A program made the position numbers and the translations under genes. From positions 1 to 40,000 of the forward strand of contig CAYFGB010000010.1 of the NCBI GenBank assembly GCA_964342455.1: a stretch of DNA of 40,000 bases, given 5' to 3'. The first letter of the stretch is position 1. Each line of letters begins with the position of its first letter. This document shows positions 624 through 14,492 of this stretch, one piece after another. This DNA is from an uncultured Hyphomonadaceae bacterium (GTDB taxonomy: Bacteria > Pseudomonadota > Alphaproteobacteria > Caulobacterales > Hyphomonadaceae). The notes beneath the pieces were generated by a model that was not told the DNA's origin, ran no database searches, and was given only the letters and a program-made list of their open reading frames with translations.

Positions 624-657
624 CCTCACCCCAACCCCCTCCTTGGAAAGGAGGGGG
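623..657. repeat. right inverted repeat flanking the DUF559 gene; its hairpin is the casposon target
   Basis: ACCTCACCCCAA followed by hairpin CCCCCTCCTT-gga-AAGGAGGGGG. This is the reverse-complement partner of 239-275. Confidence 0.8.
640..653. repeat. left copy of putative target-site duplication (TCCTTGGAAAGGAG)
   Basis: The 14-bp core is identical to 12923-12936. The perfect direct repeat extends to 19 bp (635-653 = 12918-12936) if the C-run is counted. Confidence 0.7.
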
Positions 658-664
658 GGGGGGG

Positions 665-691
665 AAATACTAAGGGAAAATCCATGTACCG
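665..691. repeat. left terminal inverted repeat
   Basis: AAATACTAAGGGAAAATCCATGTACCG. The reverse complement of 12888-12914 reads AAATACTAAGGGAAAATCCGTGTACCG. Weaker similarity (8/11) continues for 11 more bp inward. Confidence 0.9.
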
Positions 692-797
692 CTTAGGTTT
701 TGAATGAGGTGCGTGCCATTATGGCGGACATCACTTCAACCACTTTTGCGATACTTTATTCAAGTTTCGCTGACTGTGTCAGCGCCATAAAACGGGA

Positions 798-1109
798 TTA
801 CAACTCAGGCTCACCTTTCGACATTTCATAGCTCTCACGAAATTCTCTTTGAGCATTCTCAAGTCGGTTTTTCACATCATTGAAGCGCTCGACGATACTG
901 TCCCTGTCCAAGGGAGGGGGAGGAAGGTTACTCGGCGTCAACTCTGGAGCTGGTGGCCTCATCTCAAGTTGGCGCTCCAATTCCTCTTTCTCCATTTTAG
1001 TTGCGATGTCCGGCTCTCTGTCCCTGTTATCAGTCGCGATATCAGGAGCGGTCGCATCATTAAATGCTCCACCATCGCCAGAAAGTGCGTCACCAGAATG
1101 ATCAGACAT
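798..1109 (-). CDS. hypothetical acidic, proline-rich protein (last gene of cargo operon)
   Basis: 103-aa ORF. AAGGAG lies 7 nt upstream of the ATG at 1109, and the ORF starts 12 nt after the stop of the upstream ATPase gene. No motif recognised. Confidence 0.5.
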   Translation of the reverse strand: MSDHSGDALSGDGGAFNDATAPDIATDNRDREPDIATKMEKEELERQLEMRPPAPELTPSNLPPPPLDRDSIVERFNDVKNRLENAQREFRESYEMSKGEPEL

Positions 1110-1121
1110 GAGTTTTCTCCT

Positions 1122-2651
1122 TTAAGTTGACCAGCGTTCATCGCCATTCATGTCGTCGAAATGACGCAACCGGTCCTGAAATATTGAAAGCTCCCACCAC
1201 GGGCAGCGACTCGCTTTGATCAGCTTACATCCGCTGATCTCAATCAGCTGAGCGTCCCGTGGCATATTGAGAATATCTGCGACAGGTAAACGATCCACGG
1301 CCTGCTCTCCCCCAGACGCCGAAGCCGTCCGATTATCCGCACCCTCATTGTAATGTTGGCCGTAGCGAGTAATTTTCCCCGCTCGAGCACTCAAGCGCTT
1401 TGCGGTTTCGAGACTATCTACTGAAAGGTGTTGCACCATATCTGCACTTTCGAACAAATCCTTAGTGCCTTCTTTGCCATAGCGATCAACGAGAGACTGT
1501 TCAGTCTGGCTAAACAGCCAGAATGCCAGCCCCCGCTTACGATATTGCCGAACCCAAGTTGGTAGTGCGGTCTTTGGGAATTGAGCAACTTCATCGAAAA
1601 CGAACAACACCTTTTGCGGTCCGTCCACATCAGCCAGCTGGTCAACAATAGCCGTCATCTTGCGCGCTAAATCCGCACTATTGGCCTCCAGATCGACCTC
1701 TGGGCATTGGAGGTACAAGGTTGTGGGCTCTTTTTTCAGACGCGAAACATCAAACGGAGATTTTGCGGCATCTGCACCTAACAGCGTTCCGGGGGCATAC
1801 GGCGTAAAGGCTTTGCGCAGCTTTTCCATTTTCCAATATGCCTGCTTGGATGCGCCTGAGTTCAACTCATCTTGCATCAGAAGCAAATCTTCCATGATCG
1901 CGAGACCAATTTCCGATTGGCTGATATTGTTGACCATAGTTCCGATCATATCGCTGACGGGCTGCGACAAGAACGACCGCATGGAGCGCATGTTCATTAT
2001 CTCGGGAGCATATGCAGCGCCGTACTTCAAAACGGGCTCTGCATAATCCCTCGCGCCTTCTGCAACCCAAGGAGTATCGTTTTCTCCACGTGCATTTGAT
2101 TGAGGCACGAAAGTATGCGTGATATTACTGATATAACGACATGCCGTAACCATATCGCCGCGGGCAGCGCTACTCGTAATATGCGCAAGAGGGCAAATAC
2201 CAACGCTTTCGATACCGTAAGCCCCTGATGGGTTGTTCGCGACCACATTTTGCCCAAGCCAACTTGCGCGAAAATCTGCAGAAACCCGATAATTTTCATG
2301 ACCGATATCGATAACAACAAGGGAGGTATCGTTATCAATCCACCCCAGATTTGGCTGGATGACATCGCTCCCCTTACCAATTCCCGGCTTGCCAACGGTA
2401 ACCTTGCTAAAATGGCGTGGGTGAAAAAGCATACAGTCGTGGAGCTCATCGAACCCGATATAAGCGCCACCGTTCAATAGCCCTGCAGCACGATAGTCAT
2501 CGATATCCGCAAGCCCCCCACTATCGTGCATACCTGAAGTATGCCCCTGCTCTCGAAGTCTACGTTGCTGCAGGGCAACAAATTCCCGCACTTTTCGGTC
2601 CTGATATTCACGATGCTCTTTTATCCATTGGAGCGCATTACGAAGCTTCAT
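1122..2651 (-). CDS. TraG/VirD4-family type IV coupling protein-like ATPase (soluble domain only, no N-terminal TM segment)
   Basis: The Walker A region VGKPGIGKGSDVIQPNL matches the TraG/VirD4 pattern (..SGKG..V.PNLL). Walker B is LFVFDEVAQF. The downstream segment FWLFSQTEQSLVDRYGKEG....SVDSLETAKRLSARAG resembles the conserved Q..QL...YG / TA..LS..G region. The start ATG overlaps the upstream stop codon (ATGA at 2648-2651). Confidence 0.8.
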   Translation of the reverse strand: MKLRNALQWIKEHREYQDRKVREFVALQQRRLREQGHTSGMHDSGGLADIDDYRAAGLLNGGAYIGFDELHDCMLFHPRHFSKVTVGKPGIGKGSDVIQPNLGWIDNDTSLVVIDIGHENYRVSADFRASWLGQNVVANNPSGAYGIESVGICPLAHITSSAARGDMVTACRYISNITHTFVPQSNARGENDTPWVAEGARDYAEPVLKYGAAYAPEIMNMRSMRSFLSQPVSDMIGTMVNNISQSEIGLAIMEDLLLMQDELNSGASKQAYWKMEKLRKAFTPYAPGTLLGADAAKSPFDVSRLKKEPTTLYLQCPEVDLEANSADLARKMTAIVDQLADVDGPQKVLFVFDEVAQFPKTALPTWVRQYRKRGLAFWLFSQTEQSLVDRYGKEGTKDLFESADMVQHLSVDSLETAKRLSARAGKITRYGQHYNEGADNRTASASGGEQAVDRLPVADILNMPRDAQLIEISGCKLIKASRCPWWELSIFQDRLRHFDDMNGDERWST

Positions 2652-3139
2652 CGTTGTCCTCCATGGCGATCTGTTGAACGGCCAATTGGAATTCTATCGT
2701 CCGGCAATATCCTTTTCTTTGGCGTGACATTGATGAGTGGAGGACGTTTCACACGAGGCTGTTCAGCATTTGACCGGCCAGCTTCCTTTCCTCCTCGTCC
2801 GAGTTCCCGCAGTCCATCAATCCAGCTATGGTACTGGGGCCGACCTATGAAGGAGATTGTTGCCCACGTAACCGACCAACCGAAACCTGCGCAAAGGACC
2901 GTACCCACCCACGGCCATAGAATGGGCATCAGGTTAGGGCCAATAAGAGAACCGCTAACCAACCCAATGACCGGACCGAAGAACCACCCAAACAGCTTAA
3001 ATGGACTTGATATCATGCTGTCCATAGTCAGCGAAATGGCGAAGAATGTTCCGACCAAGATGGTAGGGAGAGCTGCGATACGCAGCCCCCACAAAACTGC
3101 ATCAGCAAAAGTGACACCTGAATTTACGTCGAATTCCAT
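2648..3139 (-). CDS. small polytopic membrane protein with basic C-terminal tail (possible detached TM anchor of the coupling protein)
   Basis: Three hydrophobic segments: LRIAALPTILVGTFFAISL, FGWFFGPVIGLVSGSLIG and MPILWPWVGTVLCAGFGWSVTWATISFIG. I prefer the ATG at 3139, with GGAG 7 nt upstream, over the GTG at 3145. There is a 4-nt overlap with the ATPase gene. Confidence 0.6.
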   Translation of the reverse strand: MEFDVNSGVTFADAVLWGLRIAALPTILVGTFFAISLTMDSMISSPFKLFGWFFGPVIGLVSGSLIGPNLMPILWPWVGTVLCAGFGWSVTWATISFIGRPQYHSWIDGLRELGRGGKEAGRSNAEQPRVKRPPLINVTPKKRILPDDRIPIGRSTDRHGGQR

Positions 3140-3151
3140 AATCACGCTCCG

Positions 3152-3832
3152 CTAAAAGAGGTTCTTGATGGAAATATCGTCTGGATGGACACCAGCAGCC
3201 ACGAAGTACGTCCGGTAAGCAGCCTCAAGATTATCCAACTGCCCGATGCTCATTGCGCCTTCATCAGAGACCGGAATCCCAAGGCCAACGAGCGATACAG
3301 AACACCCCTTCAGATACTCTCGCGCTGGTGTTGCGAACTGCTTTTCGCCACTCAGAACATCCATAAGGTTGGTCTCCCGTCCGGTTTCCAGCCCATCTGT
3401 CAGCAAAATGACGGTGCTACCCGGCGAACACTGGATAGGGGCCGTTTGCAGAGCAAAAAAGATCGAGGTTTCGGAGACGGTGAACTTCTCATTTGGAATG
3501 CCCGCAATATATTCGGCCACACCACCCGCGAGCTTGGACACACGGAGTTTCCGACCTGTTGTCCAAGATTTGGGATTGAGAATATCCCAATTCCGATCTC
3601 CGATGTGCTGGAGATAAATTGTATCACCAAGCAACGCACTGTTTGCCAAAAGGCTTGAAACCGACGCAGCTGCACGTTGCGCGTACGCTTCATTCTGCAC
3701 CAATGGAACACTTCCCGTCACATCAAGGAAGACGTAGTGGTTTGCCGGGGTCGAACGACGATCCGTCGCATTTGCCAAACCCGATGTAGCGAGTGCAAGA
3801 CCGAGGCAAAGCATCACAAAAATATTCTTCAT
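3152..3832 (-). CDS. secreted protein with VWA-like (MIDAS-variant) motifs
   Basis: Start set at MKNIFVMLCLGLALATSGLANA, a signal peptide, with an AAGGA RBS and 2 nt after the upstream stop codon (3837-3839). FLDVTGSV (DxTxS), ETSIFF and ILLTDGLET follow the order of VWA metal-site motifs. The fold assignment is tentative. Confidence 0.55.
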   Translation of the reverse strand: MKNIFVMLCLGLALATSGLANATDRRSTPANHYVFLDVTGSVPLVQNEAYAQRAAASVSSLLANSALLGDTIYLQHIGDRNWDILNPKSWTTGRKLRVSKLAGGVAEYIAGIPNEKFTVSETSIFFALQTAPIQCSPGSTVILLTDGLETGRETNLMDVLSGEKQFATPAREYLKGCSVSLVGLGIPVSDEGAMSIGQLDNLEAAYRTYFVAAGVHPDDISIKNLF

Positions 3833-3836
3833 AGTT

Positions 3837-4838
3837 TTAGTCCTTCTTATTGCTGTAAAGGTCGAGGGGATATGCGCCGTGCTCAGCAGCATGGGCCAAT
3901 GTCGGGCGATCCAATGCGCGAAACCGGCGACACAGATTTTCCAGAGCACTGAAGCTGACCGCTTTCAGTCCTTTGTCGGTTGGGAGTATGGCATCGCCTG
4001 TATCTGCCGCGAGGCACTTCTCAGCGAGCGCCTCCTCCAGAGCGCTTGCGAGTGGTTCAATGGCCTCCGAAACAACACTGCCCGTGTCGTCGAAACTCCA
4101 TTCTGGCAAAAGTTGCTCGCGGGCTGTCTGGAGATGATTGAGCTTGCTGGCCGTTTCTCGTGCTTCGCGCAAAACCGCACGTCCTTCAGCGAGTTTAGGC
4201 CAGTCCTCCCAAGCTCGCCGAGCGAGACCAAGCATCAACGAGATCATTGAAGACACCAGCGCGAAGCTTAACAGCGGAAAGCCGAACAAAGTCAGGCTAA
4301 ACCAGCCGGCTCCAATCTGAGCCGCCAATTCCGCAAGAGACTTATCGAACCATCCGTCACCCTCTTCTGGCGCTGTCGCCAGACCGAGACCAAGATCAGT
4401 CGGCTCATTTGCAGCGATCAATCCGTCCGCGATATATGGACCCAGACTTGCGGCGATAAGCCCGCCCAAACCCAGCAATGTCCCGATAACGAACAGCCGC
4501 ATAAGATTCGCGACAATAACCGAGGATTGTTTGTTGGCTTCATGCAGAAATGCATGCGCAGCAATGAAGGCAAAAAATGCAAGGCTGGCAGCGACGACCA
4601 TTCCGAGAGGATTGGATGAGTCATCAACGCCCAATACTGGCGGGAAAGCCGCTTCAAAGGCTGCTAAAATCAGTTTGGCATCCACCATAGTGACGCACGC
4701 AATTGCACCGCACAGAAAGAGGGCTGCTGCAGCTCTAACTGGAGCAAAGCGACCAGCCTTTTGGAGGTCGTATGCAAATTGCTCGATGCATGCCTGAGCG
4801 GCCAGAAGAATGGCTGGTTCTTTGGTGTTGAACTCCAT
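3837..4838 (-). CDS. polytopic membrane protein, function unknown
   Basis: 333-aa ORF with at least 4 hydrophobic helices and a C-terminal helical soluble region. The GGAGG RBS is embedded in the end of the upstream gene. Confidence 0.55.
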   Translation of the reverse strand: MEFNTKEPAILLAAQACIEQFAYDLQKAGRFAPVRAAAALFLCGAIACVTMVDAKLILAAFEAAFPPVLGVDDSSNPLGMVVAASLAFFAFIAAHAFLHEANKQSSVIVANLMRLFVIGTLLGLGGLIAASLGPYIADGLIAANEPTDLGLGLATAPEEGDGWFDKSLAELAAQIGAGWFSLTLFGFPLLSFALVSSMISLMLGLARRAWEDWPKLAEGRAVLREARETASKLNHLQTAREQLLPEWSFDDTGSVVSEAIEPLASALEEALAEKCLAADTGDAILPTDKGLKAVSFSALENLCRRFRALDRPTLAHAAEHGAYPLDLYSNKKD

Positions 4839-4840
4839 GG

Positions 4841-5209
4841 CTACACCTCCCGACCTGCGCGCGCACGCTCGCGGATACGGTCCAGAAAGCCTTTTTCAGG
4901 GTTCACCTGCGTCAATCCATAGAGCATACGGATGCGATGATGGGCGTCTTCGATCTCGGCATCGATTATAGCCACTTGATGCGCTCGCAGTCGGCGGGCC
5001 TCATCATGGAGGCGTGATATCAATCCCGCAGGCGGGATCGTCAGTTTTTCTACGCTGGCGGACAGCTTGTGTTTCAATGCCTCAAATTGCGAATTGTCTG
5101 CATCAATCGGTGCCCAAGCATTCTCTGCCGAACTCTTTTGTGCCGATGATGAATTCGTCTGAGCGAAATCCTCTTCAAACGAGCCAAACCCCTTCATGTC
5201 GTCGGGCAT
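4841..5209 (-). CDS. hypothetical protein (first gene of cargo operon)
   Basis: I prefer the ATG at 5209 (GGGGAG 8 nt upstream) over the GTG at 5218. The C-terminal half looks helical or coiled-coil. No motif recognised. Confidence 0.45.
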   Translation of the reverse strand: MPDDMKGFGSFEEDFAQTNSSSAQKSSAENAWAPIDADNSQFEALKHKLSASVEKLTIPPAGLISRLHDEARRLRAHQVAIIDAEIEDAHHRIRMLYGLTQVNPEKGFLDRIRERARAGREV

Positions 5210-5468
5210 AAGCCGCACTCCCCTGTTCGGGCCCGCGTCAAGCGGTCCGTTGTTGCCGTTTCAATGGGATAATTCCCAGTCACAAGAGAGGTGGGGATTG
5301 TCGAATCTTGGACGCACAAGCGGCCTGATCTGTCACTATCGGTATTACAGCCTGCCCAGTTACGTGAGCTGCGTAATGGGGCGATCCTTCTCCCGACAAA
5401 AGACGTTCATGACCTGCCTCACCTCTGAAAGCAGAGTGTGCACATCATTAGGTATCCTGTCAAGTTTT

Positions 5469-5494
5469 AGATATCCAATTGTATTTGGATATCT
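5469..5494. promoter_or_regulatory. inverted repeat AGATATCCAA-ttgtat-TTGGATATCT (candidate operator)
   Basis: Perfect 10-bp arms. A half-site AGATATCCAAA recurs at 6347-6357, upstream of the 261-aa gene. Confidence 0.45.
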
Positions 5495-6278
5495 AATTAT
5501 GGACTCGACCGGCTAGTTTTTGATTGGAAGGTGTTGGATTAATTCCGACTTCAGCCAGCAAGTCCTGAGGTACTTGATAGCCTTTGCGGATTGCTGCCAG
5601 AAAAAGCTCTCTGGTCATCCATTCGGTTCTGTTGCCGCCTGCTTCTCGGTCTGCAATTGAATTAAATAATTCGATGACTCGTGCATCAACTTTGAAAGAC
5701 AGGTTCTTTTTCCGTACATTTCGGTGATGTTCGGGAGGCAAGTCAGGACATGGAAGCTCCTGTCTCTTTCGCACTCTTCGCTGCGGCTTCTGGCTCTGCA
5801 AGCTATTAGTGATCTGATCGTACAATATTAAATGGTAATAATTTGAATCAATATCCCCCAATAAATTTACATACTTGTCGCTAATCGCAAGAAAGTCTTG
5901 AATATCGTAGAATTCTTCAGAGCGATAACTATCAATAGAATGCGCTAAATCTTGCATTATATCTGCTGATATTCTTTCAAGTGATTTAGTCTGCAAAACT
6001 AACGGCCAAATCTCATCCAAAATCACGGGAGGTTGTCGTCCCTGAATGAGTTCACCGGTTACGGTTTTTTGAAAGTCAGCAGGAATTCGCGACAAAACTT
6101 CGTCGGATAGTTGCCAAATATATGCTTGAAATTCTATTTTGGTGCGAAGCCGACGTTTTCGAAAACCTGAGCGGTCCACCTCTTCGAAACTTCTTTCAGC
6201 AATATCCAGATGTCGCTGATATCTGTCTTCGCCACTGATGGAATCCTCAGATTGAGTAAAGTCAGTTATATTGTCCAT
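5493..6278 (-). CDS. hypothetical protein with C-terminal ribbon-helix-helix-like segment
   Basis: 261-aa ORF with a GGAGAAG RBS and visibly AT-richer codon usage than its neighbours. KNLSFKVDARVIELFNSIADREAGGNRTEWMTRELFLAAIRKG has a strand-helix-helix layout like CopG/Arc-type repressors. The RHH call is tentative. Confidence 0.5.
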   Translation of the reverse strand: MDNITDFTQSEDSISGEDRYQRHLDIAERSFEEVDRSGFRKRRLRTKIEFQAYIWQLSDEVLSRIPADFQKTVTGELIQGRQPPVILDEIWPLVLQTKSLERISADIMQDLAHSIDSYRSEEFYDIQDFLAISDKYVNLLGDIDSNYYHLILYDQITNSLQSQKPQRRVRKRQELPCPDLPPEHHRNVRKKNLSFKVDARVIELFNSIADREAGGNRTEWMTRELFLAAIRKGYQVPQDLLAEVGINPTPSNQKLAGRVHN

Positions 6279-6346
6279 GATGTTGTGCTTCTCCAGTCCT
6301 GAAGCTTCGATTCGAGGCTTTAGTCAGCATATACACAATTATTAAT

Positions 6347-6357
6347 AGATATCCAAA
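6347..6357. promoter_or_regulatory. AGATATCCAAA half-site upstream of the 261-aa gene
   Basis: Same 10-mer as the arms of the 5469-5494 inverted repeat. It lies about 70 bp upstream of the start at 6278. Confidence 0.35.
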
Positions 6358-6619
6358 CGAGACTGTGTGCATAGGTGGTTTCACTCGTCTTTTAGGTGCA
6401 TGACAGCGCCGAAAGTAGCCACCGTTGATCTGGCTACATCAAGTTTAGTTCTTCAGTCGCGCTGAAAAGGCGCCGCGGATGCCTCAGGGGCTCCGCGGAC
6501 AATTGCTTGATGGTCATAGCTCTCAGTTGATCACATCAGCTGTCCGACGAGCGCGCTTTGATCTGCGCACCGGGTTCGCATCGCGCAAGATCGGCTTGGT
6601 GGTTTAATCAACTTCAACA

Positions 6620-6892
6620 CTATGCCGATTTATAAAAGCTGTCTGGCTTCTGTTCCTGTTTGGGCGGGGCATCCAGATGAACGGCAGCCCTCAGAAGAGC
6701 TTCCCTTTGATCGGGCCAAATTTTTTGCAATTCATTAAACGCGGCGAGGCGAGCTATTTGAATGTCTCTAGGGTTTCGAGGGCGTTTGGTCTTGTGGTCA
6801 TAGCTCTCGGTAAGTCTGAGCTGTTGTCTGACCAGCTCCCTTCCGTCTGCGTAGACCGGGCCATACGCATTGCTGCTATTCGATTTAGCCAT
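6620..6892 (-). CDS. hypothetical small protein
   Basis: I prefer the start MAKSNSS at 6892 (GGAGGGA RBS 6 nt upstream) over the ORF-track start at 6940. No motif recognised. Confidence 0.4.
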   Translation of the reverse strand: MAKSNSSNAYGPVYADGRELVRQQLRLTESYDHKTKRPRNPRDIQIARLAAFNELQKIWPDQREALLRAAVHLDAPPKQEQKPDSFYKSA

Positions 6893-6995
6893 ATCACTTC
6901 CCTCCGAAACTATGCGGACATATCCACTCCATTGCTGCACTTAGAAAAAAGTGCTCCTCGAAATCTCAATCGTCAAGGGAAAAAAGGCCGTGTTA

Positions 6996-7012
6996 AATAT
7001 CATAATGATATT
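6996..7012. promoter_or_regulatory. 17-bp palindrome AATATCATAATGATATT (candidate operator, copy 1)
   Basis: Perfect palindrome around a central base. Its reverse complement is identical to copy 2 at 7069-7085. Confidence 0.5.
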
Positions 7013-7068
7013 AATGGTGCAAATAAGGTGTAATATTCACTAACGTTTGACGCCCGTAAGTTCTTATA

Positions 7069-7085
7069 AATATCATTATGATATT
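7069..7085. promoter_or_regulatory. 17-bp palindrome AATATCATTATGATATT (candidate operator, copy 2)
   Basis: Same site as 6996-7012, with centres 73 bp apart. It lies in the spacer between the cas1 stop and the 90-aa gene. Confidence 0.5.
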
Positions 7086-7258
7086 TAATAACTTTCAATG
7101 GTCACGAAGGTGGAGTTTTCGGTAGGGGCTATATCTGTCAGATGAGGTGAGTATTGAGCGCTCAAATTCAGGCACGAAGCCTTAGATTGCGCAAGCAAAC
7201 TATGAGAGCTTATTCCCAGATATGTAAAAGAACCAACTCAATGGGTGGCAGCAGCTTG

Positions 7259-8314
7259 CTACAATTGGCCAGAACACAGACAGGCCCCAACTGATAAAAT
7301 GGCCGCCAGCTTCGCCGACAGCCTGCACATTCCATCTTGTCGGATGTAAAAGTCTTTCACTGTGAACCGTTCATTCAGTGCAAACTCCAACACAGCCTTA
7401 TCGACTTCAGGCCTATGTGGTTCAATGAGGTCCAACACATAGGAAGGGCGCTCTTCATAATTGCCATGAAAGATGCCGAAGTTCGGATCGTATCCGTGCG
7501 CCACCACGTCTAGTCGAATTTGAGATTCCAGAACCGCATAGCCATAGTTCAACATGGCATTGATGGGGTGATCCGCCTTTCGGTTACGCGCATTCTTACC
7601 TGCAATATTGGATGACCGTTTTGAATAGCTGAGCCATGGCGTTGGAACAGGATGTTGATTAATGCCCTTCCACCTCAACTCCAATCCGTTCCAGACATCG
7701 AAGTACCGTGCGGCAGCAACGCCTTCGATGCCCCGCAAGGCATCGACGCTGTCGGCTTCTCCATTTGCAATCTTGTGAAGGCCTTTCTCGGCCCAGATTT
7801 CCGCTTCGCGCCTCACCTCTGACGGCGGAAAAATTTCCCGTAATGTCACAAGGCTCGCTTCGAGCTTTCGTCTCACCAAAGCAGCACAAAAATCGAGACG
7901 TTTTTTCGGGTCATTTCGAATGGCAATTTGTTCCTGTAGTCTGACTGCGCAGATTGCGCCTTTTGATCCTCCGACAATGGCGCTGACTTTTCCCTTATAG
8001 GAGAGGTTCAAAAGCACCACGTCTTGAGCTTCCAGCCAGTCCAAAACAGCAAGCGTAATTGCGCCGGATGTTTCGATAAAAATGATGCGTTCTGGAATAG
8101 CCATTTCACCGGGATAAAACCGCCAGAACTTTTTCTCCTCGCTCGCATAGCTGCGCCCATTCTCAATTTCGAGTGCACCATTTCTGATGCGCAATTGGAC
8201 GCCATGTCCCGTCAAAATCAGTGGGTGCTTTCTTCGATGTCTGGCAAGCGTTTTAGGTTCCAGTTTTTCCGCTTTATTTTCCCAATACGCACAGCGCGAA
8301 TCCCAAGTGTCCAT
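7259..8314 (-). CDS. cas1: Cas1-family integrase (solo Cas1, casposase-like)
   Basis: 351 aa. The N-terminal beta domain is LILTGHGVQLRIRNGALEI...IIFIETSGAITLAVLDWLEAQDVVLLNL. The helical catalytic domain has LRGIEGVAAARYF (Glu), KADHPINAMLNYGYAVL (His) and GYDPNFGIFHG.....SYVLDLIEPHRPEVD (acidic residue). Order and spacing are typical of Cas1 (PF01867-type). Confidence 0.9.
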   Translation of the reverse strand: MDTWDSRCAYWENKAEKLEPKTLARHRRKHPLILTGHGVQLRIRNGALEIENGRSYASEEKKFWRFYPGEMAIPERIIFIETSGAITLAVLDWLEAQDVVLLNLSYKGKVSAIVGGSKGAICAVRLQEQIAIRNDPKKRLDFCAALVRRKLEASLVTLREIFPPSEVRREAEIWAEKGLHKIANGEADSVDALRGIEGVAAARYFDVWNGLELRWKGINQHPVPTPWLSYSKRSSNIAGKNARNRKADHPINAMLNYGYAVLESQIRLDVVAHGYDPNFGIFHGNYEERPSYVLDLIEPHRPEVDKAVLEFALNERFTVKDFYIRQDGMCRLSAKLAAILSVGACLCSGQL

Positions 8315-8571
8315 TTTCGACTCATTTTCTAGATGATTTATTCCTCAAGAAAATCATAGCAAAAATGTAGCCGAAAACTTAGAGAAAACGAGTTCCTTAT
8401 TGGAATAAAATGCACCAATAATTTATTTATGTTTTTTATGTCAAATTAATTCTCAGTATCTAATCTCAAAAAATGAACTCTATATTTACTGTATACATAC
8501 TATTGGCGCTAATTTTGCATGAATTTTCTCGGTAGTCCCGATACGGGACAGTTCAGAGATGAGTTTCGACC
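8315..8571. promoter_or_regulatory. AT-rich divergent control region between cas1 and the HTH-HNH-polB operon
   Basis: 257 bp, much more AT-rich than the surrounding DNA. It contains the inverted repeat ATGATTT-N11-AAATCAT (8333-8357) about 19 bp upstream of the cas1 start. It also contains hairpin GTCCCG-ata-CGGGAC (8535-8549) 22 bp upstream of the HTH gene start. No promoter hexamers are called. Confidence 0.5.
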
Positions 8572-9084
8572 ATGCCAAGGAAAACGAGTAAGAAGCGGTA
8601 TCGCTGGACGCGAAGCAAAGCGAATGAGCGCTTCGCTGCACTGCCAACGGAACGCAGGAGAGCCTATAGACTTGCTTTTCTGAGTGTGAAGAAAGGCGCG
8701 AGCATTACTAAAGCAGCTAGAGACTTTCACGTGGACCGTGAGAACCTCTCCTCATACGTCATAGCGAATTCACGGTTCAGGAGGAAGAAGGGTGGAAAGC
8801 TCAAAATCCTTCAGGATAAGCGTGTCGTGCCAAGAAGCGTTGTCACCACTGGCGGCTTGCTTCGACTCTCCATGAGTGCCGACCAAATCGAGAAAATCAG
8901 CGCACACAATCGCGATGTCGAACGCGAACGGCAGAACAAACAAGTTGGTGTTTTGGCGAAATGGGAAGGTGAGCAGGTCAGAGACACCGATGGTAATCGG
9001 TATGATTTGCTCTTTTCCAGAGAGGAATTGTTTGAAGTTCTACCGCCTAATGAAGCGCGGGATGACAATTACGACGAGGCGTAA
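8572..9084 (+). CDS. helix-turn-helix DNA-binding protein
   Basis: 170 aa. GASITKAARDFHVDRENLSSYV looks like a classical HTH. The gene ends 1 nt before the HNH gene start. Confidence 0.6.
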   Translation: MPRKTSKKRYRWTRSKANERFAALPTERRRAYRLAFLSVKKGASITKAARDFHVDRENLSSYVIANSRFRRKKGGKLKILQDKRVVPRSVVTTGGLLRLSMSADQIEKISAHNRDVERERQNKQVGVLAKWEGEQVRDTDGNRYDLLFSREELFEVLPPNEARDDNYDEA

Positions 9085-9085
9085 C

Positions 9086-9922
9086 ATGTCAGGGTTTCAA
9101 ACAGCAAAAGAAACGCACAAGCGCGCCACGCAGTCAGCACGGCGCGAACGCCAGCTTAAAATGCGGGGTCATGCTTGCTACATGTGCGGTGTTGAAGACC
9201 CCGAACTTCTGAAACTCGTCTATCTCGATGAGAAGAACATGTGGGACAAGTCGGAGGCTGTGCTGTGTCGTAACCACCGCCAGCTTCTTACCGTTTATCA
9301 AAACGCGGAAAAACTGCCTCAAGGGTTCCGACCCAACAGCAATGTAACCGTTTTCGATGCGCTATACATGGAAGCCAGCTTCGCTGACATGAACCGCCAA
9401 TCCTCCCTCAATAATCATAAGCAGTTTGCTGCTGAACATGTTGACCAAACGCTTCAACTTTCAAATCTGATTGAAGACCATTCGATACTCAAAAAGCGCC
9501 TGAAGAAGGCGATGAAGAAAGACCCATTTGGAACTCACGCAGATTGTTATTGTGCGATTTGCCATGAAGTGAGGCCAATGGTTCTGGAAGCTCATCATGT
9601 GGACAGGGAGGGGCTATCCGAGCGAGCCATTATTCTCTGTCATAACCATCATGACCTTGTCTCAATTGAGCAAAGATATCACCCCGACAAAGACGCGCTC
9701 CTATCGCTTGCGGATGACTATCGCGATTTTGTTGCTCAACGCCTTGGGATGGATGTTCTCGAAAAATTAGCTGCAATGCAGAAAGAGGCGACATCCAAAG
9801 TTCTATTCGATGATGCCATTCTGATGGCAAAAATTCACCAACTCGCAAATTCGCCGGATGCCGAGCTATCTGCAGAAGAATTTGAGGAAATGCTGGTTCC
9901 GGGTGTGGTAAAATGGAGCTGA
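9086..9922 (+). CDS. HNH endonuclease-domain protein (two Cys/His modules)
   Basis: Start moved to MSGFQT at 9086, because the ORF-track extension 8876-9085 overlaps the HTH gene. Module 1 is CYMCG...LCRNHRQL. Module 2 is CAICHEV..LEAHHVD......LCHNHHDLV. The stop overlaps the polB ATG by 10 nt. Confidence 0.75.
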   Translation: MSGFQTAKETHKRATQSARRERQLKMRGHACYMCGVEDPELLKLVYLDEKNMWDKSEAVLCRNHRQLLTVYQNAEKLPQGFRPNSNVTVFDALYMEASFADMNRQSSLNNHKQFAAEHVDQTLQLSNLIEDHSILKKRLKKAMKKDPFGTHADCYCAICHEVRPMVLEAHHVDREGLSERAIILCHNHHDLVSIEQRYHPDKDALLSLADDYRDFVAQRLGMDVLEKLAAMQKEATSKVLFDDAILMAKIHQLANSPDAELSAEEFEEMLVPGVVKWS

Positions 9923-12867
9923 AGCTTCGCGCCTTCGTAACACCTGAGAAAGGATTTAAGGGCTCGCGGCGAAAGCCATTTCCCAGACATCGCAGTGGAC
10001 GGACACTAACTTTCGATTGCGAAACACGCACAGACGCATCACAGCGTTTGCGGTTCGGAGCATATCGCATTGATGACGAGCCAGATGAGAATGGTGAAAC
10101 ACTCGTCTCCGAGGGCTTGTTTTACGATGAAGGCGGACTGGAAGACGGTGAGCTCGAAACACTGAAAGAGTATGCCCATTCTGAAGGTTTGCCGATTCTC
10201 AGCTATCAAGAATTCAGTGAAGAGATATTGCTCAGCCAATGTTACGAGCTGTCAGGCACAATAATCGGCTTCAACCTACCATTCGATTTGTCGCGCCTAG
10301 CCGTCAATGCATCCCCTTCCCGTAGATACAAGAACGATGACCGTTTTGAGAACGGCATTACGCTTCATCTTTTGCCCAATCAAAAGTATCGCGGAAAAGT
10401 TCGCGTTGGTCATGTAAACGCCAATCGGTCACATCTCTCATTCTACAAGGAGTTTGACTCCTACTATTTCGGCAACTTCATCGACGTGAAGACGCTCGGC
10501 ACTTCGTTGTTGTCCGGCACGTCCAGCCTTGCATCGGTTGCGAAGGCACTCGGAGTTTCGCATGAAAAAATGGAGACAGACGAGCACGGCAAGACGCTCA
10601 CGCGGGATTATATCGAATACGCCCGAAACGATGTGACCTGCACGTGGGAGTGCTATTGCGAACTGCTCACGCGACTAGGCACCCATGCGTTTGACGATTT
10701 AGACGATATGCAGGTCAACAGCGAAGCAAGCATAGGAAAAGCGTATCTTCGAGACTTCGGCATTCTGCCTTGGCGACAAGTCCAACCGAATTTTCCGCCT
10801 GAAATCACCGGCAAGATTATGAGTAGCTATTTCGGCGGTCGGACAGAAGTTCGTATTCGCCGGGACATCCGCGAAGTGTTCTATGCAGATTTCCTGTCCA
10901 TGTACCCAACGGTAAATGCGCTCATGGGGTTGTGGAAGTTCGTCATTGCGGAAGGCGTGGACTATGACGAGAGCGAAGACGCGAAATCTTGGACGACGGA
11001 GTTTCTTGAAAACGTCACCGGGGGAGATTTTCAATGCCAAGAGATTTGGCGAGACCTGCCGACGCTGGTTCAAGTTAAGCCTGATGATGACGTCCTTCCC
11101 ATTCGGGCTGATTTCGCAGATTCAGGCACAACCAATATCGGCATTAATCACCTGACATCTGACGCGCCGCTTTGGTTCACGCTCGCCGATTGCGTCGTGT
11201 CCAAACTGTTGACGGGCAAAACTCCGAAAGTTGAACGCGCAATTCGGTTCAGCCCAAAGTTACCTCAACATGGCCTGAAAACGAAAACACTACTGGGTCA
11301 AACGGACGGCGTGATTGACCCCTATAGTGACGACTTTTTCAAACGATTGATTGAAGAGCGCGCCAAACTGAAGGCGGCGAAGAACTCAGCGGCAGGTGAA
11401 GAAAAAGCCCGTCTGAAAATTGCAGAGAAAACCGTCAAGATTATTGCTAATGCGGCAAGCTACGGGCTCTTCATTGAGTTGAACCCGAAAGACTATCCAG
11501 AACCTCAAAGCGCTATTCGTTATGGGTTTGAGGTTGAGCCGCACGCGTTCGAAACCAAGACACTTGAGATACCCGGAGAGTATTTCCACCCACTTTTGGC
11601 AACCTGCATAACAGGTGCGGCTAGGCTCATGCTGGCGCTGGCTGAATGGCGCGCTGCGCAGCACAAAATAAACTGGACGTTCTGTGACACAGACGGACTG
11701 GCACTCGCAAAGCCAGACCATATGGAAAGAGCGGATTTTCTCACCAAATGTCGTGATGTTCTCGATTGGTTTAAACCGCTCAATCCATATGACGGGCAAG
11801 CTGGAATTTCTGTCCTTGAGCCCGAGGAAGAGAACTTCCACCCTGATTACGAAGTTGAAAAATCCAATCCTGATTGGACGCAGCTCCAACCTCTTTATTG
11901 CTATGCTGTTTCAGCGAAACGCTATGTCCTGTTCAACGAAATTGATGGCGACATCAATATCAGAAAATCTTCAGCTCACGGACTTGGCTATTGGGCGACA
12001 CCCTTTGGGGAGTTTGATGAAACTGCTGGTGAGTGGGAATGGCGCTTGGCACTTTGGGAGCACATCATCAAAGCTGCCAGAGAAGACAAAGATGATGAAA
12101 TCGACCTCTCGAAAGACGACCGCTTCAATCTAGCTGCAGCCGGACAATCAACCATTACGCGTTGGGATCAATTCCAATGGTATGCCCGATACAATGCGCA
12201 ACAAGCCACAGGCCATGGCCCGATTGATGATTATCGAAACGGTATTCAGCCGTTCAATTTCTTCCTTCGATTTCTGAACAAAGCTCATGACCGTGTTGAT
12301 GACACGAATCCAGATGTCGAAATCTGGCGTGCAATTGTTGGCCGGGAGCCAAAGCTTGCAGCGCCGTTCGATAAAGACTTGGGAACTGCAGCCTCACAAC
12401 TTTTCGACATTGAAGCCCAAACGAACGACGCGACAGAGGCGATTGATTTTTCGCCTTGGCTTCGGTCCTTCAGCGATAGGTTTTCCGACTATAATCTCCA
12501 TCGCGAAAACAAGTTCGCCGATTGTCAGGTCCACACAAAAGGACTTCTTCAGAGAAGGCACGTTCAAGCGAGCGGATTTGCGCACATCGGTAAGGAAAGC
12601 CATGATTGGGACGAAACACTTGTCCCGTGGGCCAATGAAAGCGGCGGAATTAGTTTCGGAACGTCCAATCTCGACACAGCATCAAAGCGGGACATCATCT
12701 TGAACGCATTGAGCAAAGGAACGTGCAGCTCAAATCAGCTTGTTCGGATGACGGGCGTTTCCAAAACCACGATGAGCCACTTGAAGCAGGGCAAACCTAT
12801 TCCACTGTCCAGCCTAGCGAAACTCCATGACGCGGTGATGTCGTTGCTGCACGCCGAAACGGTCTAG
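9913..12867 (+). CDS. polB: family B DNA polymerase with 3'-5' exonuclease domain and C-terminal HTH
   Basis: ExoI is FDCET (D at 10015). ExoII is GFNLPFDLSRL (N at 10273). ExoIII is YARNDV (Y at 10618). Motif A is YADFLSMYPT (D at 10888). Motif B is KIIANAASYGLF (11437-11472). Motif C is FCDTDGLAL (DTD at 11687-11695). A KxY motif, SAKRYVL, is also present. The C-terminal segment NQLVRMTGVSKTTMSHLKQGKPIPLSSL looks like an XRE-type HTH. Confidence 0.9.
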   Translation: MELKLRAFVTPEKGFKGSRRKPFPRHRSGRTLTFDCETRTDASQRLRFGAYRIDDEPDENGETLVSEGLFYDEGGLEDGELETLKEYAHSEGLPILSYQEFSEEILLSQCYELSGTIIGFNLPFDLSRLAVNASPSRRYKNDDRFENGITLHLLPNQKYRGKVRVGHVNANRSHLSFYKEFDSYYFGNFIDVKTLGTSLLSGTSSLASVAKALGVSHEKMETDEHGKTLTRDYIEYARNDVTCTWECYCELLTRLGTHAFDDLDDMQVNSEASIGKAYLRDFGILPWRQVQPNFPPEITGKIMSSYFGGRTEVRIRRDIREVFYADFLSMYPTVNALMGLWKFVIAEGVDYDESEDAKSWTTEFLENVTGGDFQCQEIWRDLPTLVQVKPDDDVLPIRADFADSGTTNIGINHLTSDAPLWFTLADCVVSKLLTGKTPKVERAIRFSPKLPQHGLKTKTLLGQTDGVIDPYSDDFFKRLIEERAKLKAAKNSAAGEEKARLKIAEKTVKIIANAASYGLFIELNPKDYPEPQSAIRYGFEVEPHAFETKTLEIPGEYFHPLLATCITGAARLMLALAEWRAAQHKINWTFCDTDGLALAKPDHMERADFLTKCRDVLDWFKPLNPYDGQAGISVLEPEEENFHPDYEVEKSNPDWTQLQPLYCYAVSAKRYVLFNEIDGDINIRKSSAHGLGYWATPFGEFDETAGEWEWRLALWEHIIKAAREDKDDEIDLSKDDRFNLAAAGQSTITRWDQFQWYARYNAQQATGHGPIDDYRNGIQPFNFFLRFLNKAHDRVDDTNPDVEIWRAIVGREPKLAAPFDKDLGTAASQLFDIEAQTNDATEAIDFSPWLRSFSDRFSDYNLHRENKFADCQVHTKGLLQRRHVQASGFAHIGKESHDWDETLVPWANESGGISFGTSNLDTASKRDIILNALSKGTCSSNQLVRMTGVSKTTMSHLKQGKPIPLSSLAKLHDAVMSLLHAETV

Positions 12868-12887
12868 CTTTCTAGCCAACACCCAAC

Positions 12888-12914
12888 CGGTACACGGATT
12901 TTCCCTTAGTATTT
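12888..12914. repeat. right terminal inverted repeat
   Basis: CGGTACACGGATTTTCCCTTAGTATTT, the reverse complement of 665-691 with one mismatch. It begins 20 nt after the polB stop. Confidence 0.9.
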
Positions 12915-12922
12915 ACCCCCCC

Positions 12923-12936
12923 TCCTTGGAAAGGAG
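12923..12936. repeat. right copy of putative target-site duplication (TCCTTGGAAAGGAG)
   Basis: Identical to 640-653. It sits inside a third copy of the host hairpin (12916-12943) that lacks the ACCTCACCCC part of the DUF559 flank. Confidence 0.7.
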
Positions 12937-13826: not shown

Positions 13827-14492
13827 ATGAGAACACGGGTCAAAGTCTGCTGTATTTCGTCAGAGGATGAAGCGCGCCATGCGATCCGCGCCGGCGTTGA
13901 TGCTGTGGGTCTCGTCGGTCGCATGCCGTCTGGCCCAGGCCCGATTTCCGACAAGAAAATCGCCGAGATTGCCCGCGCCATTCCGCCAGCCGTCAGCTGT
14001 TTTCTGCTGACCTCGGAAACCACGGCGTCCGGCATTGCCGAGCATTTGCTGCGGACGGGCGTTTCCACCATTCAGCTGGTTCAGCATCTCTCGATCGCGG
14101 AAACCATGGCGCTCGACCGGGTGCTGCTGTCAACGCGGCGTGTGCAGGTCATCCACATGGAAGACGAAAGCGCGCTCGATCTGATCGATAAGTATGAGCC
14201 CTATGTGCATGCCTTCCTGCTCGACTCCGGGCGTCCGTCGGCTGACACACCGGAACTGGGCGGTACGGGCCGCACACATGACTGGGAATTATCGCGCCGG
14301 TTTGTCGAGAAATCGAAAAAGCCCGTTTTCCTGGCCGGTGGGCTGACCCCGGAAAACATTCAGGACGCGATTCTCAAGGTCCGGCCATTTGGTGTGGATG
14401 TCTGTACAGGCGTGCGAAATCAGGGCCATCTGGACCCGAAACGCCTCGAAGCCTTCATGAGCGCGGTGCGGATGGCGGACCGGCATCGCTAG
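13827..14492 (+). CDS. trpF: phosphoribosylanthranilate isomerase-like protein
   Basis: RVKVCCISSEDEA (compare KICGIT), ELGGTGRTHDW, VFLAGGLTPENI and FGVDVCTGV follow TrpF (PRAI) motif order. The start could be the GTG at 13818 or the ATG at 13827. Confidence 0.7.
   Translation: MRTRVKVCCISSEDEARHAIRAGVDAVGLVGRMPSGPGPISDKKIAEIARAIPPAVSCFLLTSETTASGIAEHLLRTGVSTIQLVQHLSIAETMALDRVLLSTRRVQVIHMEDESALDLIDKYEPYVHAFLLDSGRPSADTPELGGTGRTHDWELSRRFVEKSKKPVFLAGGLTPENIQDAILKVRPFGVDVCTGVRNQGHLDPKRLEAFMSAVRMADRHR

Follow-up and report, generated by a model that had tools for sequence, protein, structure and literature searches.

A probable intact family-3 casposon of an uncultured marine alphaproteobacterium, with hairpin target sites and exchangeable cargo among its relatives

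The locus and the boundaries of the element

We analyzed a 40,000-nt stretch of DNA from an uncultured Hyphomonadaceae bacterium (GenBank assembly GCA_964342455.1, contig CAYFGB010000010.1, positions 1–40,000; hereafter, the window), in which an earlier note, made from the sequence alone, had proposed a casposon, that is, a transposon encoding a solo Cas1 as the presumed integrase together with its own family-B DNA polymerase (PolB). The unit in question occupies positions 654–12922 of the window (12,269 bp, ~12.3 kb), limits that we obtained from the target-site duplication (TSD) parse described below and that coincide with those of the earlier note. Its conserved core consists of a left terminal inverted repeat (TIR), cas1, a divergently oriented operon encoding a helix-turn-helix (HTH) protein, a duplicated HNH protein and PolB with a terminal HTH, and a right TIR, and its GC content is ~0.50 compared with ~0.57 in the flanks. 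The ends and core genes are as follows.

640–653, no strand: left copy of the TSD, TCCTTGGAAAGGAG, with an identical 14-mer at 12923–12936
654–702, plus strand: left TIR, a G11 run (654–664) followed by AAATACTAAGGGAAAATCCATGTACCG, from the repeat finder and the sequence
7259–8314, minus strand: casposase, a solo Cas1 of 351 aa without a fused HTH or Zn domain, with E197, H283 and E298
8315–8571, no strand: spacer separating cas1 from the divergent HTH-HNH-polB operon, presumably containing promoters; the layout is kept in ~35 related loci
8572–9084, plus strand: core HTH protein, 170 aa (GASITKAARDFHVDRENLSSYV), homologue of a conserved ~190-aa family-3 core gene
9086–9922, plus strand: zinc-ribbon HNH protein, tandemly duplicated, 278 aa, called from a family profile and motifs
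9913–12867, plus strand: family-B DNA polymerase, 984 aa, with a 3'-5' exonuclease domain and a C-terminal HTH (aa 926–973)
12877–12922, minus strand: right TIR, terminating ...CCTTAGTATTTA-C7 at 12922, from the repeat finder and the sequence
12923–12936, no strand: right copy of the TSD, TCCTTGGAAAGGAG; the AGGGAGG next to it was the 3' arm of the hairpin in the host before insertion

The 27-bp TIR cores (665–691 and 12888–12914), read directly from the sequence, are identical at 26 of 27 positions, as the earlier note had stated, and the repeat finder extends them to arms of 49 nt each (654–702 and 12877–12925) that are 88% complementary. The 19-nt TIR core occurs exactly twice in the window, against 0 copies expected by chance and 0 in 100 shuffles. 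Both TIRs are poly-G-initiated, and the directly repeated host sequence noticed earlier proved to be a TSD that is perfect (14/14) on both flanks. The left junction reads ...ATAACCTCACCCCAACCCCC / TCCTTGGAAAGGAG / G11-AAATACTAAGGGAAAATCCATGTACCG... and the right junction ...CGGTACACGGATTTTCCCTTAGTATTTA-C7 / TCCTTGGAAAGGAG / AGGGAGGCGCTGA... (slashes mark the borders of the TSD). At its maximal extent, the flanking direct repeat found by the repeat finder measures 19 bp (CCCCCTCCTTGGAAAGGAG), of which five bases are C's inseparable from the terminal C-run of the right TIR. We fixed the length of the TSD at 14 bp because in L089, a locus whose core is closely related to that of the window element, two element ends abut as ...TATTTA-C10 / TCCACCGTAGCAGA / G11-TAAATAC..., with an unambiguous spacer of exactly 14 nt; the homology of the window left TIR to L089 is restricted to 651–694.

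The 14 bp at 640–653 correspond to the loop and the inner part of the stem of a hairpin in the host DNA, located 3' of the stop codon of a DUF559 gene. The 3' ends of the element thus delimited read ...TTTACCCCCCC-3' (also written ...TAGTATTTACCCCCCC-3'), the hairpin target is CCCCCTCCTTGGAAAGGAGAGGGAGG and the predicted empty site is ACCTCACCCCAACCCCCTCCTTGGAAAGGAGAGGGAGGCG. The terminal homopolymer runs are uneven, with G11 (654–664) against C7 (12916–12922) in the window, 12 against 6 in the related locus L052 and 10/11 in L089, most relatives having runs of ~4; this unevenness suggests slippage, untemplated end repair or homopolymer assembly error.

The core genes

The Cas1 product (7259–8314) matches Pfam PF01867, the profile that the earlier note had proposed to search, with 124 bits and passes the generic TIGR00287 model (110 bits, cutoff 71.7), whereas it scores far under the cutoff of every CRISPR-subtype-specific NCBIfam Cas1 model. 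Its catalytic residues E197, H283 and E298 are invariant across 32 homologues and align to the active site E162/H232/E247 of the M. mazei casposase (6OPM, confirmed in papers as the structure of that protein; a 17-residue tag offset in the chain was allowed for in the alignment). The same casposase is the best PDB match, with the single sequence (63.9 bits, the best CRISPR Cas1 reaching 48.1) as well as with the family profile (153.9 bits vs 98.4). Among published casposon proteins, the window Cas1 shares 42% identity (E=6e-93) with the family-3 casposase of HenMar-C1 and 28% with the Cas1 of StrAlb-C1. Judged from these scores, the protein is closer to casposases than to CRISPR Cas1.

The neighborhood points in the same direction. 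Repeat and Rfam searches returned no CRISPR-like repeats and no Rfam CRISPR match in the 40 kb, and no cas2, cas4 or other cas gene was found among the open reading frames (ORFs) of the window or in the ~3 kb further left that are covered by the longer source scaffold (L001, L003). Nor did we find a tyrosine, serine or DDE recombinase, either in the element, where the earlier note had reported none, or in the rest of the window. Thus, the description of a solo Cas1 holds, with an intact catalytic triad, no associated cas genes, no CRISPR locus close by and profile scores that do not place the protein among CRISPR-associated Cas1.

Divergently from cas1 runs the HTH-HNH-polB operon, in which the genes are separated by a 1-nt gap and then overlap by 10 nt; this tight arrangement at 8572–12867 had been correctly recognized before, and the identities of its products are supported by family-level evidence. 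The 170-aa ORF matches a profile of 33 positional orthologues (the 190-aa family) with E=1.6e-17 in hmmsearch, contains a typical HTH stretch and is the counterpart of the HenMar-C1 'HTH' gene F550_08000. The 278-aa ORF yields two matches to the profile of a 125-aa family (E=7e-7 and 8e-13) and is therefore a tandem duplication, with an intact C-terminal module (CAIC...AHHV...CHNHH) and an N-terminal module without the catalytic His-His. The 125-aa family has the consensus CxxCG...LELHH...CRNCHR and gives weak Pfam HNH matches in 13 of 32 members, and its profile matches the HNH domains of IscB and McrA in PDB. Most relatives encode ORFs of ~225, 190 and 125 aa between cas1 and polB, mirroring the HTH, HTH and HNH-ZBD genes of HenMar-C1. 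The tandem HNH form, with two CxxC...HH...CxNxH modules, occurs in the window and in the related locus L009, and ~31 relatives have a single 125-aa module.

The PolB protein matches a PHROG DNA polymerase family (E=3e-13) and is 34–51% identical to the PolBs adjoining related Cas1 genes. All the expected motifs are readable in the sequence and invariant in 18 homologues:

Exo I: FDCET (D35/E37)
Exo II: NLPFD (N121/F124/D125)
Exo III: YxxxD (Y236/D240)
Motif A: DFLSMYP (D326/S329/Y331/P332)
Motif B: KxxxNxxYG (K509/N513/Y517/G518)
Motif C: DTD (D592/T593/D594)
KxY: KRY (K669/R670/Y671)

The C-terminal HTH of the window PolB matches the description by Krupovic et al. of such a domain in the PolBs of family 2 and of NitAL212-C1.

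Related loci and their target sites

A scan for Cas1, using one genome per GTDB species, identified 113 relatives, and we retained 80 loci. These come almost entirely from Alphaproteobacteria, namely, Hyphomonadaceae, Sphingomonadales, Rhodospirillaceae, Caulobacterales and Hyphomicrobiales, with a few from Nitrosomonas, Gammaproteobacteria, Verrucomicrobiota and Actinomycetota. The relatives include Henriciella, Hyphomonas, Nitrosomonas and Sphingomonadales loci, the best match in a genome being a Hyphomonas metagenome-assembled genome (53%). PolB is encoded divergently upstream of Cas1 in ~50 of the 80 loci, and the two genes are divergent neighbors in 35 of the 37 loci with at least 35% identity and enough flank. 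The earlier statement that the bacterial branch of casposons is small is not borne out by this number of Cas1-PolB pairs among GTDB representatives. Two loci, L038 and L043 (Cas1 at 10001–11023 and 10001–10963, respectively), encode the same Cas1 family (38% identity) and have full flanks, with no PolB detected nearby; a DUF559 gene lies immediately downstream of cas1 in L038. These may be decayed or PolB-less derivatives.

To delimit the elements, we searched the whole flank for TIRs, requiring a 14/14 direct repeat; a search limited to 900 nt past PolB mostly failed, the relatives carrying cargo on both sides. In this way, 21 elements were delimited (the window element and 20 related loci), 8.6–14.9 kb in size, each with a perfect 14/14 flanking repeat and with TIRs that begin GGGG(G)TATAGTGAT... 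or GGGGATAAGG... (GGGG-TATAG-type). In a register analysis, we anchored each TIR at its first base other than G and counted the G's left over; these add up to 8–9 in 12 of the 17 resolvable cases, which gives a GGGG-TATAG end with a TSD of 14–15 bp; this is the range measured for archaeal casposases. The 3' ends of the family (...ATACCCC-3') resemble those of the M. mazei casposon (...TATATCCC-3'), the terminal C's of which are contacted by the casposase.

The duplicated targets are C-rich at the 5' side and G-rich at the 3' side and lie within GC-rich hairpins. The perfect stem at insertion sites has a median length of 8 bp, random positions taken from the same loci giving 3 bp, and stems of at least 7 bp are found at 12 of the 21 sites against 1.2% of the controls (binomial p ~2e-18, Mann-Whitney p ~7e-10). 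The folding energy of the whole sequence window around a site proved too blunt as a test of hairpins (median z=-1.3) and was replaced by this stem-length statistic. Several of the target hairpins are flanked by A and T runs, in the manner of bidirectional intrinsic terminators, for example, AAAAGGCCCGGT-gcaaat-ACCGGGCCTTTT in L041. The target loops have the same orientation at both ends of the element, and therefore are true direct repeats located outside the TIRs. The casposons of Sphingopyxis in L044 and L052 have the identical target hairpin, ACCCCGGACTTGATCCGGGGT, reflecting either one inherited insertion or repeated use of a site; this shared target is a caveat to the counts of hairpin sites.

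Within the literature that we searched, the only statement on the sites of bacterial casposons is that they are 'inserted within intergenic regions', and the palindromic T-psi-C-arm target of A. boonei provides a precedent. Bacterial family-3 casposases can be read as hairpin- or terminator-specific integrases, a reading that is better supported than that of transfer by conjugation, which is considered below. With its duplicated 14 bp forming a C...G palindrome, the target is reminiscent of a short proto-CRISPR repeat.

Cargo exchange and tandem arrays

Two related loci, L089 and L092, encode Cas1 and PolB proteins ~90% identical to those of the window. At the nucleotide level, their identity to the window is 88–91% over 7316–12925 and the ~44-nt left TIR, and the interior is unrelated: L089 carries a cluster of Asn-synthase, transglutaminase-like and 2-oxoglutarate (2OG) oxygenase genes and L092 carries other genes. 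In L089 (6192–12216), genes for Asn-synthase-like and transglutaminase-core-like proteins lie by a 55-aa ORF, together with a 2OG-Fe oxygenase and a DUF2332 gene; going by precomputed Pfam labels alone, this cargo looks like a biosynthetic cluster of the lasso-peptide type.

The break between cargo and core falls within cas1, 57 nt from its 3' end, where the sequence forms a terminator-like hairpin (7301–7323, minus strand), and the homology to L089–L093 ends at ~7316, the position of this hairpin, so that cargo replacement breaks within the last ~19 codons of cas1. The C-termini of the Cas1 proteins differ, giving lengths of 351, 353 and 357 aa.

Ends that abut back to back with one spacer of TSD length were found in five loci:

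L089: 406–480 and 12178–12250
L017: ~5263–5282
L021: ~3819–3836
L033: ~3299–3317
L058: ~14077–14095

These junctions indicate tandem head-to-tail arrays in several alphaproteobacterial genomes; tandem arrays of casposons have been described earlier for Methanosarcina. We considered L089 as an excised circle and rejected this in favor of a tandem array, given that its sequence departs from the repeat unit over the initial 52 nt; the circle is also disfavored by similar junctions inside long chromosomal contigs (L021, L033, L058). Together, near-identical cores with different cargo and the tandem arrays imply recent activity of the lineage.

Assignment of the window element

The Cas1 triad, the family-B polymerase, the TIRs, the 14-bp TSD and the lack of cas2, CRISPR or an alternative recombinase in the window support the casposon architecture proposed in the earlier note. 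We consider it highly probable (about 0.92), from these sequence features, that the unit at 654–12922 is an intact casposon of the bacterial family 3, inserted in the chromosome of its uncultured marine alphaproteobacterial host.

Several observations weigh against this assignment or parts of it. The calls of the HNH and HTH proteins come from family profiles and motifs: searched directly, the 278-aa and 170-aa ORFs gave nothing significant by Pfam (E<=10) or by phmmer against PDB, and a word-index search returned near-identical proteins only. The DNA_pol_B check suggested earlier for 9913–12867 ended 1 bit short of the PF03175 gathering score (24.8 vs 25.8 bits), in contrast to the invariant motifs and the PHROG match; moreover, phmmer found no PDB match for PolB and the PolB family profile only weakly matches solved PolBs (archaeal family-B polymerases), so that its identity rests on the motifs. 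The placement of Cas1 in family 3 comes from pairwise and profile scores. Cas1 has no fused HTH, a domain that is essential for integration in M. mazei and would have to be supplied in trans. Only about half of the loci yielded ends in the search for TIRs and TSDs, and the window hairpin taken alone is unexceptional (DNA fold -6.7 kcal/mol, z=-1.0), the hairpin rule being a family-level statistic.

Finally, the current mobility of the window copy is unproven, and no empty site was recovered: looking up exact matches to the proteins of both flanking genes gave filled sites only, all 6–7 public contigs with the same flanking proteins being filled at the same site, a scan of the JGI metagenomes with a junction-specific 28-mer gave 0 matches and a tolerant scan of metagenomes with the right-flank protein gave no relatives. 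The comparison with related genomes called for in the earlier note thus recovered only filled sites, and none with the two hairpin copies and no element between them. The 'recent discrete insertion' of that note is plausible, given the perfect TSD, the intact genes and the GC difference.

These observations bear most directly on the alternative that the element is a casposon by descent that is now an immobile, fixed resident, either an inactive relic or kept for its cargo. Such a state would account for a site that is filled in every public contig with the flanking genes, and for the unequal terminal runs (11 vs 7), the mismatch in the TIR core and the degenerate N-terminal HNH module. However, the core ORFs are full length with intact catalytic residues, the TSD is perfect, near-identical cores elsewhere carry other cargo and form tandem arrays, and the GC content is still unlike that of the host. 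On balance, we regard a fixed resident as unlikely, albeit the most credible of the alternatives.

The cargo and the alternatives that it raises

Between the left TIR and the cas1 breakpoint lies a replaceable cargo of 6.6 kb (~695–7315; genes at 798–6278), which was absent from the earlier note. It consists of a tight six-gene operon (gaps of 2, 4, 12, -4 and 12 nt), one further gene upstream and a stretch without a convincing gene:

798–1109, minus strand: acidic Pro-rich ORF, 103 aa, operon gene 6 (last), without family matches
1122–2651, minus strand: soluble, very divergent ATPase of the VirD4/TraG superfamily (type IV coupling protein-like), 509 aa, operon gene 5
2648–3139, minus strand: small polytopic membrane protein, 163 aa, operon gene 4, its stop overlapping the ATPase start by 4 nt
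3152–3832, minus strand: exported (signal-peptide or lipoprotein-like) protein, 226 aa, operon gene 3, with an N-terminal hydrophobic segment
3837–4838, minus strand: polytopic membrane protein, 333 aa, ~4–5 transmembrane helices and a helical C-terminal domain, operon gene 2, without family matches
4841–5209, minus strand: predicted coiled-coil protein, 122 aa, operon gene 1
5493–6278, minus strand: mostly alpha-helical protein, 261 aa (orf261), upstream of the operon, without family matches
6279–7258, no strand: ~1-kb AT-richer stretch without a convincing gene, part of the variable cargo

The ATPase has intact Walker A (GKPGIGKG) and Walker B (VLFVFDE) motifs, and VirD4/TraG-family domains span aa 84–496, with Pfam matches to PF02534 (1.3e-21), PF12696 (5.8e-17) and PF10412. 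It scores no more than 53 bits against the NCBIfam TraG/VirD4 models, the cutoffs of which are 443–728, and the alignment begins past the usual transmembrane region; no N-terminal transmembrane segment is predicted. A sequence search of PDB gave no match, and only 2 relatives were found among 5.8 billion proteins. Because its stop overlaps the start of the ATPase gene by 4 nt, the 163-aa protein may be a membrane anchor that serves the ATPase in trans. The 226-aa exported protein has a MIDAS-like motif, DVTGS...TDG, and its low-confidence AlphaFold2 model (pLDDT 55) matches PDB folds that are almost all von Willebrand factor A (vWA) domains (best E=3e-4), making a vWA fold probable. The model of orf261 is unusable (pLDDT 38), its topology being all-alpha with a C-terminal beta-alpha-alpha element; a C-terminal ribbon-helix-helix motif is possible.

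The gene-poor stretch at 6279–7258 contains a 57-nt imperfect direct repeat (6511–6567 and 6795–6851, from the repeat finder) and two copies of a 23-nt palindrome, TAAATATCAT(A/T)ATGATATT (6993–7015 and 7066–7088), and could be a regulatory region or an origin. Promoter-like hexamers cluster at 7005–7105, overlapping the palindromes.

The trio of vWA-like protein, small membrane protein and VirD4-like ATPase is also encoded, with 31–44% identity, at 8880–11560 of a JGI metagenome contig (L094), where its neighbors are a tyrosine-integrase fragment, an MmeI-type restriction-modification system and Fic genes, without Cas1 or PolB. The membrane protein has its homologue there in the corresponding position (E=6e-9), the vWA-like protein also has one (E=9e-20), and the trio is absent from all 80 related casposon loci. 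Because the trio occurs in the L094 island and in none of the related casposons, it is portable cargo, and the operon as a whole is portable passenger DNA rather than part of the transposition machinery. PADLOC found no defense systems in the cargo and none of the cargo ORFs matches PHROGs.

The coupling protein-like ATPase raises the possibility of a hybrid, mobilizable casposon, in which the operon, perhaps together with orf261, would couple the element DNA to a resident type IV secretion system (T4SS). The domains and Walker motifs are those expected of a coupling protein and a translationally coupled membrane partner is encoded just upstream, so that a conjugation-type cargo (a split soluble ATPase with its membrane partner, vWA and possible ribbon-helix-helix proteins) could supply casposons with a route of horizontal transfer; Krupovic et al. 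(2016; PMC4779613) know of no casposon with conjugation-related functions and describe the transfer route as unclear. Against this stand the extreme divergence of the ATPase, with its two relatives, and the finding that no ORF of the element matches a relaxase, VirB4 or other T4SS component in Pfam, NCBIfam or PHROGs. The L094 trio is not in a recognizable conjugative context either, and its distribution is that of ordinary swappable cargo. Accordingly, we view conjugative mobilization as doubtful.

A different interpretation of the same genes, a Cas1-encoding provirus, tectivirus or Toil-like, with a divergent capsid and a packaging ATPase of the FtsK/HerA type, draws on the reclassification of the 'family 3 casposon' StrAlb-C1 as such a virus by Yutin et al. 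(2018) and on the presence in the cargo of an ATPase of the FtsK/HerA superfamily and several membrane proteins. Yet the similarity of this ATPase, which extends over almost the whole protein, is to VirD4/TraG coupling proteins and not to packaging ATPases, and the PHROGs, as stated, yield nothing. The other ORFs are membrane, coiled-coil, all-alpha or vWA-like and none is beta-rich or jelly-roll-like, with the reservation that the models are of low confidence and a very divergent capsid is possible. Among 2.9 million viral contigs, the Cas1 family is all but missing, the window Cas1 is less similar to that of StrAlb-C1 than to that of the capsid-less HenMar-C1 (28% vs 42%), and the ATPase trio also occurs in an island that is not a casposon. 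A provirus is therefore very improbable. The sole substantial Cas1 match in the viral collection, L095 (IMG/VR UViG 3300012268_000167, 7.7 kb), shows 35% identity over 308 aa and lies at the contig end.

A remnant of CRISPR-Cas adaptation that happens to lie beside an unrelated polymerase gene, with no discrete mobile element, can be set aside as next to impossible: databases do label the protein 'CRISPR-associated endonuclease Cas1' and generic Cas1 models match it, but the 40 kb contain no cas2, cas4 or array, TIRs and TSD bound the unit exactly, the linkage of Cas1 and PolB is kept in 35 of 37 relatives, a casposase matches best among the solved structures and the subtype-specific CRISPR models stay far under threshold.

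Comparison with known systems

Family-3 casposons of Alphaproteobacteria are known from Henriciella, Hyphomonas and Citromicrobium (PMC4046053, PMC4779613). Hence, the novelty of the window element, which the earlier note had left undecided, is confined to the individual copy, of which we found no mention in the casposon papers covered by our literature search; the family, including alphaproteobacterial members, was described in 2014 and 2016 in the same two papers. HenMar-C1, HenMar-C2, HypCY54-C1 and CitBat-C1 (Krupovic et al. 2014, 2016) have the same solo Cas1 without fused domains, and the HenMar-C1 group shares the divergent HTH, HNH(ZBD) and PolB operon, the intergenic insertion, the alphaproteobacterial (Hyphomonadaceae-like) host and the layout of the ends, a C-rich hairpin followed by GGGG-ATAAGGGAAA.

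The differences lie elsewhere. HenMar-C1 is 16.3 kb long compared with 12.3 kb for the window element, and the cargo is wholly different, with Cas4-helicase, methylase and kinase genes in place of the VirD4-like ATPase operon. The window element has one small HTH gene, not two, its HNH gene is tandemly duplicated and its terminal G-run has grown to 7–11. HenMar-C1 was reported with a 37-bp TIR and a 1-bp TSD, whereas the window TSD is clearly 14 bp. The published 37-bp 'TIR' (PMC4046053, Fig. S2) consists of a C-rich hairpin and then GGGGATAAGGGAAA, a layout as in the window. An interpretation of the HenMar-C1 ends as a hairpin target with a 14-bp TSD was considered and is not supported by the printed sequences, in which the orientation of the loop suits an inverted repeat better than a direct one: the right-end loop, GCATC, has 1 mismatch to the sequence expected for an inverted repeat and 3 to that expected for a direct repeat.

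NitAL212-C1 of Nitrosomonas sp. AL212, also of family 3, shares the 14-bp TSD, the C-terminal HTH of PolB and the HNH and HTH core genes, and its TIR starts GGGGTATG, like that of the window; it differs in the Zn-finger and HTH fused to Cas1, in cargo and in its betaproteobacterial host. The family-2 casposons of M. mazei and A. boonei, the casposases of which have been characterized experimentally (PDB 6OPM), share the Cas1-fold integrase with its E/H/E active site, a TSD of 14–15 bp, the HNH, HTH and PolB core, similar TIR 3' ends (...ATATCCC and ...ATACCCC) and tandem arrays in which neighbors share one TSD. In contrast to the window element, they reside in archaea, target the 3' ends of tRNA genes and have an essential C-terminal HTH fused to the casposase, and their Cas1 is ~20–25% identical to the window Cas1 over the aligned region. 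Integration of TIRs in vitro has been shown only for three archaeal casposases.

More distant systems share single features. StrAlb-C1 and the Toil-like Cas1 proviruses of Streptomyces have Cas1, PolB, TIRs and a location in a bacterial chromosome in common with the window element but encode a double jelly-roll capsid protein and are now seen as viruses, whereas no capsid candidate was found in the window element. Pipolins and Polintons have their own family-B polymerase and variable cargo, and neither encodes Cas1; pipolins rely on tyrosine recombinases and on direct repeats located at tRNA genes and Polintons on an RVE integrase; neither kind of recombinase is found in the window. With the VirD4, TraG and TrwB coupling proteins, the cargo ATPase shares PF02534, PF12696, PF10412 and the Walker A and B motifs; unlike them, it has no N-terminal transmembrane segment, falls below the equivalog cutoffs and is accompanied by vWA-like exported and membrane proteins rather than by a relaxase or T4SS.

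Host setting

A 260-kb scaffold from Tara Oceans contains the identical sequence of the window, and several other marine assemblies have the same insertion. The DUF559 gene and a small convergent gene border the element, with serC upstream of it and trpF downstream. The immediate left neighbor is the DUF559 gene (282–623) rather than serC, as had been stated, although a serC leader RNA lies at 118–170 on the minus strand (Rfam RF00517, 43 bits); the longer source scaffold continues past this leader with a 387-aa gene and serA. The start of serC is at or slightly past the left edge of the window, with serA next (L001, L003). On the right, where trpF had been placed correctly, the flank comprises the small convergent ORF, a 171-aa ORF, trpF, a hydrolase gene, an accD-like gene and more housekeeping genes.

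The repeat finder showed that the DUF559 gene is bracketed by inverted 38-nt repeats containing hairpins, giving these surroundings the look of a REP-like or cassette structure. The inverted ~38-nt units, at 238–276 and 622–660 around this gene for a protein of Vsr-like endonuclease fold, have the form AACCTCACCC...CCCTCTCC-loop-GGAGAGGG; the casposon target is the right-hand copy.

Proposed mechanism of integration

By homology to the casposases of M. mazei and A. boonei, a Cas1 tetramer would bind both 3' ends of the element (...TTTACCCCCCC-3'), the 3'-OH groups of which would attack the two strands, 14 bp apart, of the palindromic target with its C-rich and G-rich halves. Repair of the gaps would then generate the TSD, and the PolB of the element would replicate or repair the element. 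Recognition of the target and ends is probably provided in trans, because the window Cas1 has no fused HTH domain, and could come from the separate HTH protein, the C-terminal HTH of PolB or both; the HNH protein probably aids in cutting or processing the ends. As the TIR begins with a G-run, insertion would rebuild a complete hairpin at the left junction and keep one at the right, and with hairpins at both junctions, the possible terminators of the two flanking genes would remain.

Implications

The CRISPR adaptation machinery has been proposed to descend from casposons. The window copy, which is intact and cleanly delimited and combines a Cas1 without fused domains with a defined 14-bp target and defined ends, offers a tractable bacterial model of such an element. 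The type of element is already known; what our analysis adds is the hairpin and 14-bp rule, the breadth of the clade, the turnover of cargo and tandem arrays, and the VirD4-like cargo. The comparison of loci shows that the bacterial family is much more widespread in Alphaproteobacteria than the literature suggests.

The target rule is testable: GC-rich palindromic hairpins, often terminator-like, with the hairpin rebuilt by the element's own G-run. Targeting of hairpins would parallel the integration by Cas1-Cas2 at palindromic CRISPR repeats. Furthermore, the ~90%-identical cores with swapped cargo, along with the VirD4-like ATPase, bear on the transport of genes by casposons and on their movement from cell to cell and, should the cargo in fact be of the conjugation type, this would be the first casposon seen with such a function.

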